Of a stretch of DNA of 41,325 nt, positions 1 to 16,456 are shown in pieces. The notes under the pieces are model-generated. The model saw only the letters and a list, made by a program, of their open reading frames with translations, did not search any database and was not told where the DNA came from. The first letter of the stretch is position 1. Each line of letters starts with the position of its first letter. Both the position numbers and the translations under genes were made by a program. This stretch comes from Capsulimonadales bacterium (GTDB taxonomy: Bacteria > Armatimonadota > Armatimonadia > Armatimonadales > Armatimonadaceae): positions 1 to 41,325 of the forward strand of contig JANRLW010000127.1 in NCBI GenBank assembly GCA_033762295.1, in the 5' to 3' direction.

Positions 1-38
1 TTTCAAGGCGGTTGCGATACCATTCCGCTCACCCCTCC
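1..38 (-). tRNA. tRNA-Ser(UGA), 5' half only (cut by window edge)
   Basis: Minus strand reads GGAGGGG-TG-AGCGGAATGGTATCGC-A-ACCGC-CT-TGA-AA. This gives a Ser-type GGAG acceptor 5' strand, a D-loop GG, and an anticodon loop CU-UGA-AA. A sigma70-like promoter lies immediately upstream. The 3' half is outside the window. Confidence 0.75.
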
Positions 39-48
39 CGGCCCATCC

Positions 49-78
49 AGTATACCTTGGAACCGCCTTCCCTGGCAA
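49..78 (-). promoter_or_regulatory. sigma70-type promoter for the tRNA
   Basis: Minus strand TTGCCA (78-73), 18-nt spacer, TATACT (54-49), about 10 nt upstream of the tRNA 5' end. Confidence 0.6.
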
Positions 79-147
79 ATGATCGGACGGGAACCGTCGG
101 GAATACGGGTGCGTGTCGATCGCTCTTCCCGACCCGGGGCCGGGGCT

Positions 148-176
148 TTGCGTCCGCGGGTTCATCCCTTTATAAT
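148..176 (+). promoter_or_regulatory. sigma70-type promoter for mcsB-like gene
   Basis: TTGCGT (148-153), 17-nt spacer, TATAAT (171-176). An in-frame GTG at 183 sits at the expected transcription start. Confidence 0.65.
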
Positions 177-182
177 CGCATC

Positions 183-1304
183 GTGGAAGTCTCCCGTGAC
201 CATCGTCGTCCTCTGGCCGCCTACTTGAAAACGCCTGCCTGGGCGGATCAGGTGAATTCGGCGACGGACGGCGATGTGGCGCTCTGCTCGCGCGCGCGCC
301 TGGCGAGGAACCTGGCCGACTATCCGTTTCCGGGCCGAGCCAGCGACCGGGACCTGCGGCGTGTGGCGCAGGAGGTCCGACGCGCCGCGCTCGCGGATAC
401 CGAATGGCTGGGGGACCTTTCGGCGGTCGCTCTGGCGTCCCTGTCCGAACGGGACCGCGCCGATCTGGTCGACGCCCGCCGCATCTCTCCGGAGATGGCC
501 GAACCGGGCGCGGCCAGTTACGCCCTGCTCGATGACGACGGCACACTGACCGTTTTCATCAACGAGGAGGACCATGTCCGGCTCCAGACCCTGGCGGCCG
601 GAAACACGCTGATCGCCGCCTTGAAGACGGCGGAGGAGGCCGAAAGCCGACTCGCCCGTCGCCTCCGGTTTGCCCACCATCCGCGCTGGGGCTACCTGAC
701 GACCGCCCTTTCCAACATCGGCACCGGCCTTCGCCTGTCCGCTCTGGTGCATCTGCCCGCCCTCGCCTTTCTGGGCCGATTGAGCGAGACGCTGGAAGCG
801 GCCCATCAACTCGGTATCTCGGTCCGGGGAGCGCACGGAGAGGGTTCGCAGGCGGCCGGCGACCTGTATCAGGTCTCCAACGCGATCTCTTACGGGCTGA
901 CGACCGCGCATATCGTCCGAAGGGTAAGGCCGGTCGTCGACTATCTGGTTGCGGCGGAGCGCGAAGCGCGTCAGGAGGTCGGCGAACGGCGTTTCGAGGA
1001 CGCCATGAACGGGGCGCGTCTCGCCTGGACCCGGATCGAGAACGCCGACCGGCTCGACGCGCCGACGGCGCTGACTCTGCTGTCCGCGCTCCGCCTGGTC
1101 GCTGTTGCCGGAATGGCGCTCAGCGGCAGGTCACCGGTCCCGGACGCCACCCAGTTCGCCACTCTGATCGCCGACCTTCGCACCGGCGGCAGCCTTTCCG
1201 CCGAATCGGATCGTCATGCCGGCCCGCTTCCGTCCGTTCGGGATGCGATTCAGCGCCCCGCACGTATCCGTTCCGCCCTGCGCGCCTCCTTCCATCTGCT
1301 CTGA
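183..1304 (+). CDS. mcsB: McsB-like ATP:guanido phosphotransferase (protein-arginine kinase homolog, divergent)
   Basis: Motifs SRARLARN..YPFP, INEEDHVRLQ, GYLT..SNIGTGLR, HLPAL, RG.HGEGS..GDLYQVSN. Start moved from 12 to GTG 183 because the longer ORF runs over the tRNA and both promoters. Confidence 0.85.
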   Translation: MEVSRDHRRPLAAYLKTPAWADQVNSATDGDVALCSRARLARNLADYPFPGRASDRDLRRVAQEVRRAALADTEWLGDLSAVALASLSERDRADLVDARRISPEMAEPGAASYALLDDDGTLTVFINEEDHVRLQTLAAGNTLIAALKTAEEAESRLARRLRFAHHPRWGYLTTALSNIGTGLRLSALVHLPALAFLGRLSETLEAAHQLGISVRGAHGEGSQAAGDLYQVSNAISYGLTTAHIVRRVRPVVDYLVAAEREARQEVGERRFEDAMNGARLAWTRIENADRLDAPTALTLLSALRLVAVAGMALSGRSPVPDATQFATLIADLRTGGSLSAESDRHAGPLPSVRDAIQRPARIRSALRASFHLL

Positions 1305-1331: not shown

Positions 1332-1375
1332 CTTAACATTTATTTAACCAAAGACCCGCCAACCTGTGTTATACT
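1332..1375 (+). promoter_or_regulatory. Pho-box-like direct repeat plus extended -10 promoter
   Basis: CTTAACAT-tta-TTTAACCA (TTAAC at 1333 and 1344), then TG-t-TATACT (1367-1375). The same layout occurs at 10940-10983. Confidence 0.6.
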
Positions 1376-2437: not shown

Positions 2438-2482
2438 CTTCGTCTCTCATTCCTTATCGTGATTTCCAGAAAGGACCCTACC

Positions 2483-3379
2483 ATGCGATCCTCTCGTCAG
2501 GCGTTCACCCTGATCGAACTGCTCGTCGTCATCGCCATTATCGCGATTCTTGCTGCCATTCTTTTCCCCGTCTTTGCCCAGGCTCGTGAGAAGGCCCGCC
2601 AGACCTCCTGCCTTTCCAACGTCAAGCAGATCGGTCTCGGCATGATGATGTACGCTCAGGATTATGACGAAGTCATCTCCCGCAACGCGCATCCGGACCC
2701 GCCCCGCGTTCCCGAAGGCGCGCACTTCACCAACTGCTCCACGCCGCGCTGGATGGACGTCATCAACCCGTACATCAAGAACCTGGATATCTTCAACTGC
2801 CCGTCCGACCCGTTCGCCTCGATTAGCGGAACTCTGGTCACCGGCGCCGCGCATACCCTCGCCGGGAACCGACGGTATCAGTACCAGCCGCCGAATCCGA
2901 ATAACAGCCCGACGATCCCGATGCGCGAAGCCGACTGCGGCGACCCGAACGGTCTGACCAACGTCGGACGCCGGTTCGGCTCCTACGCCATTAACAACGT
3001 CTACTACAACGGCAACCTGGCCGCCAACACCGCCGCCTGGGGCTTCAGCCTGACGCCGCCGAATAACGTGCCGCTGGCCCGTATCGCCCTCCCGGCCGAT
3101 ACCGCCCTGATCTGCGAAGTGCAGGGCATGGGGCAGTCCGGCGACTTCTATCGTGCCGACCTGAGCGATCCGCAGCCGACCACGCCGAACGAGACCTTCC
3201 CGTTCCCTGCGCTGTTAAACCGCCGCAACAACGGCGCGATCCTCGGCCGCCACATGAAGCTGACCAACGTCGTCTGGTGTGACGGTCATGCCAAGGCGTT
3301 CCGCCTGGAGAAACTGGGCGAACTGCGCACCCGAAACGGCTTCTCCTACATGCACTACTTCTCCTGCGAAGAGGACTGA
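2483..3379 (+). CDS. DUF1559-type prepilin-like protein with H-X9-DG-CTERM
   Basis: [15 protein letters not shown]...[56 protein letters not shown] before ATG 2483. Confidence 0.92.
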
Positions 3380-7879: not shown

Positions 7880-8410
7880 TCAATACTCCGCCCAGTAGGC
7901 GATCCCGGTCTCCGGCGAGACGGCGATGAAAAACCGGGTCGGATAGCCGTCGTCGCGAACACGGGTCAGGGTCAGCGATTCGATCCGGGTATACCTCAGC
8001 CCGCCTTCGGTTCGCTCCGCCGGAAGCGCGGGGCTTCCGGGCGGATAGGTCATGCTGCGCACCCGGGTACGGAACTCCGCGCAGTACGTATTCGCGGGCA
8101 GGTAGTCGATCGTGATGCGCCGCCAGACGCGGTTTCTCAGGTCCTTTTCCCGCCCGCTCTCCGCCAGTTTCTCCTGAAGAAAGAACGGCAGATCATCGTA
8201 GGCGGACGGTTCGCCGAAATGCAGCACGTTTTCGGGCGGGACGACCGCGCTCTCATCGCGCAAGTGCGGTCGGACGGACGGCGGAATCGGCGGAATTGCC
8301 GGACGAGGCGTTCTTTTTCGTTCGACCGGTCGGTAGGCTCCGTCGGTTCGGTGAGCGATTCCCGACGCGCTGGTAGAACGAGGCACGGATACAACGGTTA
8401 CAACGGACAT
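7880..8410 (-). CDS. hypothetical protein
   Basis: 176-aa ORF filling the gap between the hpf terminator and pcrA. The C-terminal part looks globular. No family recognised and the start is uncertain. Confidence 0.6.
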   Translation of the reverse strand: MSVVTVVSVPRSTSASGIAHRTDGAYRPVERKRTPRPAIPPIPPSVRPHLRDESAVVPPENVLHFGEPSAYDDLPFFLQEKLAESGREKDLRNRVWRRITIDYLPANTYCAEFRTRVRSMTYPPGSPALPAERTEGGLRYTRIESLTLTRVRDDGYPTRFFIAVSPETGIAYWAEY

Positions 8411-8550
8411 TTCGTATTCCCGGGCAATTCTTATCGTGAAAATTGCCTGATTTTTGACCGGACAGGTGACAGGATTAGAGATACCAGCCCGTCATTAAAC
8501 CGCGATTAAATTTTCCCGATCCGTTTTTCCGTTCAAATCCGGTTCTCCCG

Positions 8551-10939: not shown

Positions 10940-10983
10940 GTTAACAATTTCTTAACATCAGGACCGGATTTTTCCGATAAACT
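10940..10983 (+). promoter_or_regulatory. Pho-box-like direct repeat plus -10 promoter
   Basis: GTTAACAA-ttt-CTTAACAT (TTAAC at 10941 and 10952) and TAAACT at 10978-10983. Spacing is identical to the site at 1332-1375. Confidence 0.6.
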
Positions 10984-11038
10984 GTTAGGAAGGTGCGACC
11001 GGCGCACCCGTTTGGTATTTTCTTTTGGAAAGGCCCTT

Positions 11039-11863
11039 ATGCAAGTCCGACATTCCCAGGTTCGAGCCCCCCGCGCCGGGGCGGCGTTCACCCTGATCGA
11101 GTTGCTCGTGGTTATCGCCATTATCGCGATCCTCGCCGCGATCCTGTTCCCCGTCTTCGCCCAGGCCCGTGAAAAGGCCCGCGCTATCTCCTGTCTGTCC
11201 AACCTGCGTCAGCTGGGCACCGCGACGCTGATGTACGTTCAGGATTACGACGAAACGTTCCCGCAGAGCGCCTACAGCCTCGACACGACGACCTTCGTCG
11301 GCGGCGTCGGCGTCCTGGTCCCCGGCAGCGGCGACCGTGTCTTCACGGCCTACTCCGCCCTGATGCCCTACATGAAGAACACGGGCATCCTCAACTGCCC
11401 GTCGCTCGCCCCCGGCATCGACTTCAACGCGATCCTCGCCACGGTCGGTCTCCGCTCCGATAATGTCTTCCGCTACTCCGGCTACTCGCTGAACTACGCG
11501 CTGTTCCAGGACCCGGCGCTTCCGCCCGGACTTGGCGCGAACGACCCGGTCGTTCCCCTGGCCGCCCTGCAGGCCCCGGTCGATACCATCGTTTTCTACG
11601 ACTCCCGGTATGATGCGCCCGGTATCACCCGCAAGGACGGATGTCCGACCCTGGGTCCGACCGAAGCGTTCGGCTGGAACAACTTCCCCGGCGACGGTCG
11701 CCACTCCGAAGGCTTCAACGTCAACTATGCCGACGGTCACGCCAAGTATATTCGCAAGAACGGCACCATCCCCGGCCGGTCGATCGATGGCGGCGTCGAG
11801 GTGAATACCTACAACCTGCCGTGCGATGTCTCCGGAATTCCGGGCGGCACCGCCAACACGTAA
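11039..11863 (+). CDS. DUF1559-type prepilin-like protein with H-X9-DG-CTERM
   Basis: [15 protein letters not shown]...[62 protein letters not shown] before ATG 11039. Confidence 0.92.
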
Positions 11864-15767: not shown

Positions 15768-16358
15768 TTACTTGCGTCGTCGCACGAGCGCAAAACCGAT
15801 CACGCCGACCGCTCCGAGCAGGCTCAGCGTTCCCGGTTCGGGCGCCGAGGTCTGCACCAGGAAGCCGCGGATTTCGCCGCCGCCGAACACGGAGGTGTGG
15901 ATGTTGAAGTAGGTGCGCTGGGCGACCATCGCGTTGATGAACGCCGTTTCCGCCGTGGCCGGCGTGCCACCGTTCGCGGTGATAAACGCTGCGTTGTACG
16001 AGGAGGACAGGGTCATGTCAAAGGTTCGATCGTAGAAACCGAAGGTATTTCCGGCGGGGAATCCGGGGTACGTCGGGGTCGGGGTAATGACGCCCGCGGT
16101 GCCGGTCAGGGGGGTCGCCGTCGCGCCATGGATGTGGGCGACAGTCACGTTTCCGAGCAGGCCGGAGAAAGACGCGCGGACGCGCATCAGGTGGCTGACG
16201 GGATCGTAGTTGACGATCGCCAGACCGGTGCCCGGCGAGGAGTTCGGCGGGGCTTCCGCCGGACCGGACATACGAGCGATAAAGTTTTGCGCCTGGGCGG
16301 CCGGGCTCATGACAGCCAGAGTCGTCGCGACGACGACGAACTTAAACACGTTCTTCAA
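15768..16358 (-). CDS. secreted CHRD-domain protein with PEP-CTERM sorting signal
   Basis: TTG start after GGGAGG. Signal peptide ending AAQA, G..E.PP..SPG.G, AHIH, YFNIHT..F.GGEIRGFL, APEPGT + TM + RRRK. Confidence 0.92.
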   Translation of the reverse strand: MKNVFKFVVVATTLAVMSPAAQAQNFIARMSGPAEAPPNSSPGTGLAIVNYDPVSHLMRVRASFSGLLGNVTVAHIHGATATPLTGTAGVITPTPTYPGFPAGNTFGFYDRTFDMTLSSSYNAAFITANGGTPATAETAFINAMVAQRTYFNIHTSVFGGGEIRGFLVQTSAPEPGTLSLLGAVGVIGFALVRRRK

Positions 16359-16456
16359 ACTTCGTTCCTCCCAAATGAGATATTGGTATGATCGGCCCGA
16401 GCGCCTGGCACGGCGTTGGACCATCGCGCATTGGATGAATCGATTCTCGCCTGATG

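Follow-up and report, generated by a model that had tools for sequence, protein, structure and literature searches.

The window, by which we mean the whole stretch of 41,325 nucleotides analysed here, is contig C127 of a 5.16-Mb genome (132 contigs, 62% GC) from a Capsulimonadales bacterium. Its PcrA/UvrD protein is nearest to those of Armatimonadota, Armatimonadaceae and Armatimonas genomes, at 65–72% identity, which places the organism in the Armatimonadota. Open reading frames (ORFs) were called by simple rules, without a gene finder. Three genes on the forward strand encode prepilin-like proteins of the DUF1559/H-X9-DG family, and all three products match the Pfam models N_methyl and DUF1559 (PF07596)/SBP_bac_10 above the gathering scores. 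The genes at 1414 and 11039 are each preceded by a pair of TTAAC units and a -10 hexamer (Table 1); the gene at 2459 is probably co-transcribed with the one in front of it. The C-terminal H-X9-DG signature is present in an alignment of 23 paralogues, in which D217, H219 and K221 never vary and H207 and G218 reach a conservation of 90% or more, and no H-X9-DG model stood among the NCBIfam matches listed. For the product of gene 1414–2382, the sequence match to solved pilins is restricted to the N-terminal helix. An AlphaFold2 model of the 11039–11863 product, built with the 23 paralogues, has a pilin-like long helix followed by a sheet at a mean pLDDT of 69.1; a Foldseek search of this model against the PDB gave no matches at E ≤ 0.001, and the best hits were type IV pilins at E 0.2–1. 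Neither sequence, model nor Foldseek search yielded a functional or ligand clue for the DUF1559 head domain. Elsewhere in the window, an ATP:guanido phosphotransferase gene of the McsB or arginine-kinase type (3–1304, forward strand) lies upstream of the first site, and a CHRD-domain protein with a PEP-CTERM anchor is encoded at 15768–16424 on the reverse strand.

Table 1. Prepilin-like genes of the window and the promoter elements in front of two of them (PWM, position weight matrix).
Feature	Positions	Strand	Remarks
Putative Pho-box unit 1 (TTAAC; TTAACA at 1333–1338)	1333–1337	+	Promoter of the DUF1559 gene at 1414; site scores 27.9 bits (25-nt PWM)
Putative Pho-box unit 2 (TTAAC; TTAACC at 1344–1349)	1344–1348	+	11 bp after unit 1
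Extended -10, TGT-TATACT	1367–1375	+	Hexamer at 1370–1375, starting 26 nt after unit 2
DUF1559/H-X9-DG prepilin-like gene, 322 aa	1414–2382	+	Pfam N_methyl 7.8e-09, SBP_bac_10 6.8e-10
Second DUF1559 gene	2459–3379	+	Pfam; tandem position, 76 nt behind the first; no box of its own (PWM below 16 bits)
Putative Pho-box unit 1 (TTAAC; TTAACA at 10941–10946)	10941–10945	+	Promoter of the DUF1559 gene at 11039; site scores 27.3 bits
Putative Pho-box unit 2 (TTAAC; TTAACA at 10952–10957)	10952–10956	+	Exact pattern match
-10, TAAACT	10978–10983	+	26 nt after unit 2; hexamer and offset are those of the genome's pstS promoter
DUF1559/H-X9-DG prepilin-like gene, 274 aa	11039–11863	+	Pfam; H207-X9-D217 G218 H219 in the paralogue alignment

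The two promoters share one layout. A preliminary description of this DNA had reported that TTAAC recurs with a period of 11 bp in both, that a -10 hexamer begins exactly 26 nt after the second unit, and that no consensus -35 is present. The period and the offset are exact at both sites, and the hexamers at the usual -35 position, ACCAAA and ACATCA, match TTGACA at two of six positions. A sigma-70 scan of both intergenic regions returned no promoters. Two copies of TTAAC-N6-TTAAC are present in the window, where 100 shuffles predict 0.01. A weaker site, TTAAT-N6-TTAAT (8493–8509, reverse strand, 20.1 bits), is flanked by the end of pcrA/uvrD and by a reverse-strand ORF at 7880–8410 that encodes 176 residues with no Pfam match; it may be non-functional, since no -10 is found at +26. 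Both leaders (1382–1416 and that of gene 11039) finish in a common TTTGAAAGG-like ribosome-binding stretch, and their 5'-UTR folds are no better than those of shuffled sequences (z of -1.39 and -0.68). The leader of gene 11039 also contains a GC-rich hairpin followed by a T-run at 10992–11008, which is terminator-like by scan score.

The 11-bp pairing is a property of the genome as a whole. Same-strand TTAAC pairs number 34 at a spacing of 11, five at 10 and two at 12, with smaller peaks at 22 (six pairs) and 33 (five pairs), and a reversed-pattern control for the spacing of 11 gave two occurrences. The 34 exact pairs fall into 29 clusters, 18 of which lie upstream of prepilin-like genes (as counted from the list of sites), and 10 of the 34 have TAnnnT at exactly +26. 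When one mismatch is allowed, usually giving TTAAT, a pair is found within 330 nt of 34 of the 131 prepilin-like genes, versus 17 of 5000 random windows. Alignment of the 34 DUF1559 sites produced the logo AAAAT-TTAAC-(c/a)TTnnC-TTAAC-(A/c)(T/a), then G-n-TAtAaT as the -10. The second unit is defined by a preceding C (27 of 34), TTAA (33–34 of 34) and C (26 of 34), followed by A (17) or C (12) and then T (18); nothing is conserved between the box and the -10, nor at the position of a third unit. Fourteen of the aligned sites have TAnnnT starting at +26 and eight at +27, which makes 22 of 34. A 25-nt PWM built from these sites was scanned over the genome and over a locally shuffled version of it, which gave 79 versus 6 sites at 16 bits or more and 67 versus 0 at 20 bits or more. 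The PWM sites form 71 clusters, 36 before DUF1559 genes and 35 elsewhere; the count before DUF1559 genes is partly circular, because the PWM was built from such sites, and the matches before other families are not.

Those other families include the core genes of phosphate acquisition. The pst operon (pstS-pstCA-pstB-phoU), which was found with PstB and PhoU models and whose identity Pfam and NCBIfam bear out, has the promoter AAAT-TTAAT-N6-TTAAC with TAAACT at exactly +26. Looking for the motif in pst/pho promoters had been put forward as the check on the phosphate connection, and its presence here leaves that connection standing. A five-unit array lies directly before phnD-phnD-phnC-phnE-phnG-phnH-phnI, an operon for phosphonate uptake and C-P lyase, and a four-unit array precedes the gene of a 900-residue beta-propeller protein with a PF04185 phosphoesterase domain. 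Weaker or two-unit sites stand before three further PF04185 phosphoesterases, a purple acid phosphatase and a Y_phosphatase3 gene. In total, 8 of the 35 non-DUF1559 clusters are clearly phosphate-related (pst, phn, four PF04185, purple acid phosphatase and Y_phosphatase3), and the other 27 have no evident phosphate link or no Pfam match. Of the 11 PF04185 genes in the genome, four have a site of their own, three lie downstream of a DUF1559 gene, one lies before a box-bearing DUF1559 gene and three have no box nearby. Of the three DUF1559 genes that precede PF04185 genes, the scan assigns a box to two; for the third, a site of 20.1 bits is found some 380 nt in front of it. Since the box also precedes phosphate-uptake and phosphatase genes, the pilin-like genes of the window are most likely switched on at low phosphate.

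Box targets of other kinds include glnA, LacI- and GntR-type regulators, two PadR-family genes and an FAD amine oxidase, and a metallo-beta-lactamase-fold protein is encoded among the first ORFs behind the sites. The FAD amine-oxidase/phytoene-desaturase-like gene lies about 200 nt behind a four-unit array (TTAAT three times, then TTAAC; C106:40853, forward strand, L026), and its link to phosphate is not obvious. The best non-pilin site in the genome, at 32.4 bits, precedes the gene of a 76-residue CxxC protein without a Pfam match (C20:29144–29374, reverse strand, L020). A similar small protein is encoded behind a TTAAC pair in a relative (L180, genome G012), and the 76-residue protein may represent a small, conserved component of the predicted regulon.

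The box is kept beyond this genome. Of 20 related genomes, many have more pairs than reversed-control matches (for example 9 versus 1, 11 versus 0, 21 versus 3, 18 versus 4, 12 versus 1 and 10 versus 0), and five show no such enrichment (G005, G006, G009, G010 and G013). Orthologues of pstS, sought at E ≤ 1e-30, were found in six relatives. In five of these (G001, G002, G003, G011 and G012), pstS is preceded on its own strand by an exact TTAAC-N6-TTAAC, followed at +25 or +26 by TACAAT or TACACT. In G009, the sixth, the pstS relative (40% identity) has no same-strand box. Prepilin-like genes follow 12 of the 49 pair sites sampled in relatives (5 of 29 and 7 of 20). On a wider scale, triple TTAAC arrays are present in 8 of 61 sampled genomes of the phylum, and 12 such arrays lie outside the present genome. 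Six of the 12 precede DUF1559 genes, three of them in family f8 and three in one genome of family f1; two precede PstS genes that score above NCBIfam cut-offs, in two other families; the remainder stand before one OmpR/PhoB-type regulator gene in another family, one gene for a ModA-like binding protein and two genes without a family match. Three other families of the phylum carry triple arrays before DUF1559 and pstS genes. In the sister family f2, searches with the PstS of this genome (E ≤ 1e-30) and with TIGR02136 (E ≤ 1e-40) found no pstS.

A motif far above chance, its sites before pst, phn and phosphatase genes and its conservation before pstS are together best read as the Pho box of this lineage. 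We consider it likely that the TTAAC boxes form a Pho box of the PhoB/SphR type, recognized by a PhoB/SphR orthologue, and that the window genes belong to a predicted phosphate-limitation regulon. A candidate for the binding protein is encoded on contig C36, where a PhoB-like regulator gene adjoins a kinase gene. The best NCBIfam match of the regulator is PhoB, at 236.4 bits for a cut-off of 296.2, with YycF, CreB and RpaB scoring nearly as high; the best matches of the kinase are PnpS and PhoR, both with scores below the NCBIfam cut-offs. No box lies upstream of the pair, and autoregulation of the PhoB-like gene in this genome was rejected on that ground.

The genome encodes three further full-length OmpR-family regulators. 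None of the four reaches the PhoB cut-off, which leaves room for a reading in which another OmpR-family protein, or a winged-helix regulator of some other kind, binds the boxes, responds to a wider cue (general nutrient stress, envelope stress or growth phase, for example) and counts the phosphate genes as only part of its regulon. Most targets outside the DUF1559 family do lack a phosphate annotation, and two PadR-family genes carry the two-unit box with the -10 at the same +26 register (C84:20905–21252, reverse strand, L023; C73:62542–62913, forward strand, L024). The same strand of C84 carries a DUF1559 gene and a gene for a metallophosphoesterase about 2.1 kb downstream of the box. The usual targets of PadR proteins are inverted repeats, whereas the boxes here are direct repeats, which argues against PadR as the binder. 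More generally, a regulator of broader scope must be set against the presence of the box at both core operons, pstSCAB-phoU and phn, its retention before pstS in five relatives and in two other families, and the fit of the unit to the SphR box in the form in which that box has been described. We regard such a regulator as unlikely.

A Pho box placed where a -35 would otherwise stand has to be separated from a -35 element proper. TTAACA matches TTGACA at five of six positions, and most sites have an A-rich AAAAT before unit 1, so that unit 2 could be conceived as an unusual -35 with a 20-nt spacer, used by an alternative or the housekeeping sigma factor, and unit 1 with its A-rich flank as a UP-like element, with no activator involved. 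The genome's own promoters speak against this. With 3674 -10-like hexamers as anchors, TTGAC peaks 23–24 nt upstream (90 and 54 cases), which is the classical spacer of 17–18 nt, whereas TTAAC relative to the same hexamers peaks at 26–27 and 37–38 nt and occurs zero or one time at 23–24. Because TTGAC and not TTAAC fills the -35 position genome-wide, TTAAC promoters constitute a separate class without a -35, and the reading of TTAAC as an ordinary -35 was rejected. The phased arrays of four and five units are likewise unexplained by a -35 element. In these arrays, the start of a -10-like hexamer falls 15 nt behind the last unit and 26 nt behind the penultimate one; the register is thus maintained in whole helical turns and tracks helical phase, not one hexamer. 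An unusual -35 is, in our estimate, very improbable.

The genome holds 131 DUF1559 genes, and their box scores are bimodal: 36 reach 16 bits or more, 38 reach 14 or more and 93 fall below 12. The preliminary description had proposed that a subset of the family is co-regulated through phosphate, and comparative evidence supports this, in that 36 of the 131 genes carry the predicted box, the scores separate into two groups and pst and phn share the box. The subset does not follow descent closely. Mapped on a FastTree phylogeny of the full set of 131 paralogues, the box label has to change state 26 times, versus 31.5 ± 1.9 in 300 shuffles with a minimum of 25, so its clustering on the tree is weak; a single Pho-specific subfamily is unsupported, with box status scattered over the family tree. 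The two window genes are distant paralogues, and the nearest paralogues of gene 11039 (47% and 45% identity) have no box; these facts and the scattered box status led us to reject a duplication relic as the origin of the shared layout. That the layout is due to chance, or is a relic of duplicated pilin-like genes without a regulatory role, is hardly credible: the family is large and paralogous, with AT-rich upstream regions, as such an account would have it, and yet the observed counts contradict the chance expectation, motif and register are conserved where the spacers are not, unrelated families (pstS, phnD, phosphatases) share a box that the nearest paralogues lack, and the box is kept in other genera and families.

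The genes behind the box-bearing DUF1559 genes offer a view of what the predicted Pho subset may do. Of the 36 box-bearing genes, 25 have a co-directional ORF within 200 nt behind them, and in three cases this ORF is itself a DUF1559 gene. The 22 others include three metallophosphoesterases, a beta-propeller phytase, a glycerophosphodiester phosphodiesterase (GDPD), a phospholipase C-like PF04185 phosphoesterase, a PstCA-like double permease and three PSCyt1-PSCyt2-PSD1 proteins. As a control, 39 of 55 ORFs behind boxless DUF1559 genes were scanned and contained three metallophosphoesterases and one NMT1/phosphonate-binding-like protein. Phosphoesterase partners thus number 6 of 22 behind box-bearing genes versus 3 of 39 behind boxless ones (Fisher p = 0.06), an enrichment that is suggestive only. 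The earlier proposal of a nutrient-scavenging role for the pilin-like proteins gains support from the phytase, the GDPD, the three metallophosphoesterases, the PF04185 phosphoesterase and the PstCA-like permease, and the proteins may take part in such a role. No secretin, ATPase or platform gene was found among the first ORFs behind predicted sites.

Two of these arrangements deserve separate mention. On contig C64 (96391–100543, reverse strand), a PF04185 phosphoesterase, a predicted Pho box, a DUF1559 gene and a 665-residue double-permease gene resembling the fused PstCA of the pst operon follow one another in this order, and the pilin-like gene may head a second uptake system of the phosphate type. 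The large PSCyt1-PSCyt2-PSD1 (DUF1549/DUF1553) proteins, encoded behind three box-bearing DUF1559 genes at C107:6190–8751, C30:29578–32403 and C125:45532–48804 (L217, L219 and L225), belong to a family typical of Planctomycetes and occur here in an Armatimonadota genome.

If the boxes are Pho boxes, as we think likely, the promoters of the window could work as follows. Upon phosphate limitation, a PhoR-like kinase would phosphorylate a PhoB-like regulator, and a head-to-tail dimer of the phosphorylated OmpR/PhoB-family protein would dock on the two TTAAC units along one face of the helix. Assuming that transcription starts about 7 nt after the -10, the units would lie at about -49 to -45 and -38 to -34. 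The bound protein would act as an activator rather than a repressor, recruiting RNA polymerase with the housekeeping sigma factor to a good -10 that lacks a -35; because the box occupies the place of the missing -35, the -10 is proposed to be usable only with the activator bound. The window genes, and probably the tandem gene at 2459 as well, would then be transcribed alongside pst, phn, the phosphoesterases and about 34 other DUF1559 genes. The predicted regulon would comprise pstSCAB-phoU, the phosphonate/C-P lyase operon, several exported phosphoesterases and about 36 of the 131 DUF1559 genes, many of which would head small operons with phosphorus-releasing enzymes.

DUF1559/H-X9-DG is among the largest protein families without a known function, with 131 copies in this genome alone, and a conserved promoter code now marks which copies should respond to phosphate limitation. 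The pilin-like genes are predicted to make up about half of the Pho regulon, an unusual composition that may bear on how these soil and freshwater bacteria mine organic phosphorus. A broader idea, which we hold to be rather doubtful, is that DUF1559 proteins are cargo-specific partners of exported hydrolases, each co-transcribed with its own enzyme, helping to export, anchor or present it, and wired to the regulator of the matching nutrient. If this were true, the hundred or more DUF1559 paralogues per genome would constitute a modular pilin-based system for exoenzyme display or secretion, and the Pho subset of about 36 genes would be its organic-phosphorus arm, serving phytase, GDPD, metallophosphoesterase and phospholipase C-like enzymes. 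In the portions of the literature consulted, on DUF1559, on the planctomycete Pho regulon and on planctomycete transcriptomes under phosphate limitation, no link between DUF1559 and phosphate appears.

As far as sequence can tell, the comparison with other bacteria supports a Pho box of an established type, found in a phylum that has received little study, and a predicted regulon in which pilin-like genes have an unusually large part. It would define the Pho box of Armatimonadota, with a recognition sequence common to cyanobacteria. The sites bound by SphR in Synechocystis consist of three or more 8-bp direct repeats with the consensus CTTAACCT, separated by 3-bp linkers (Su et al. 2007, PMC1906773). 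The likeness of the TTAAC unit to the SphR box, suggested from the window alone, extends to the 8-bp unit of the 34-site logo: the unit C-TTAAC-[C/A]-T fits, and is nearly identical to, CTTAACCT as that paper gives it for strain PCC 6803. Judged by the same account, the two systems also share the 11-bp period, the direct orientation of the repeats and their place before pstS and phosphatase genes. They differ in architecture: SphR sites as described there have at least three units at a variable distance from the gene, whereas most sites here have two, 26–27 nt before the -10. Both window sites and pstS, with two units each, fall short of the three units required in the SphR system, and four or five are reached at the phn operon and at one phosphoesterase gene. 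The host phylum, Armatimonadota, is another, and about half of the predicted sites here precede pilin-like genes.

In Escherichia coli, PhoB recognizes two 8-bp units with an A/T linker, placed 10 bp upstream of a TAN3T/A -10 in lieu of a -35, with the unit quoted as CTGTACTA (PMC1906773). Measured against that summary, the boxes described here are alike in their 11-bp direct repeats, the missing -35, the fixed register to a TAnnnT -10 and the pst and phn targets, and differ in the unit itself, which is TTAAC here versus CTGTACTA. Compared with the E. coli box as summarized there, the two-unit boxes are also shifted away from the -10 by about one helical turn, and an E. coli-like position, with the last unit 15 nt before the -10, is reached only in the arrays of four and five units. 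A TTAACA-like hexamer once per helical turn is likewise a feature shared with the region bound by PhoP of Bacillus subtilis. PhoP recognizes TT(A/T/C)ACA repeats with an 11-bp period upstream of Pho promoters, and is said to need four of them, for two dimers. A connection between pilin-like proteins and phosphorus supply has a precedent in the Hxc type II secretion system of Pseudomonas aeruginosa, whose pseudopilins and secreted alkaline phosphatase are both induced by phosphate limitation. Unlike Hxc, which is encoded as one complete secretion operon, the genome studied here has dozens of scattered single DUF1559 genes, each with a box of its own.
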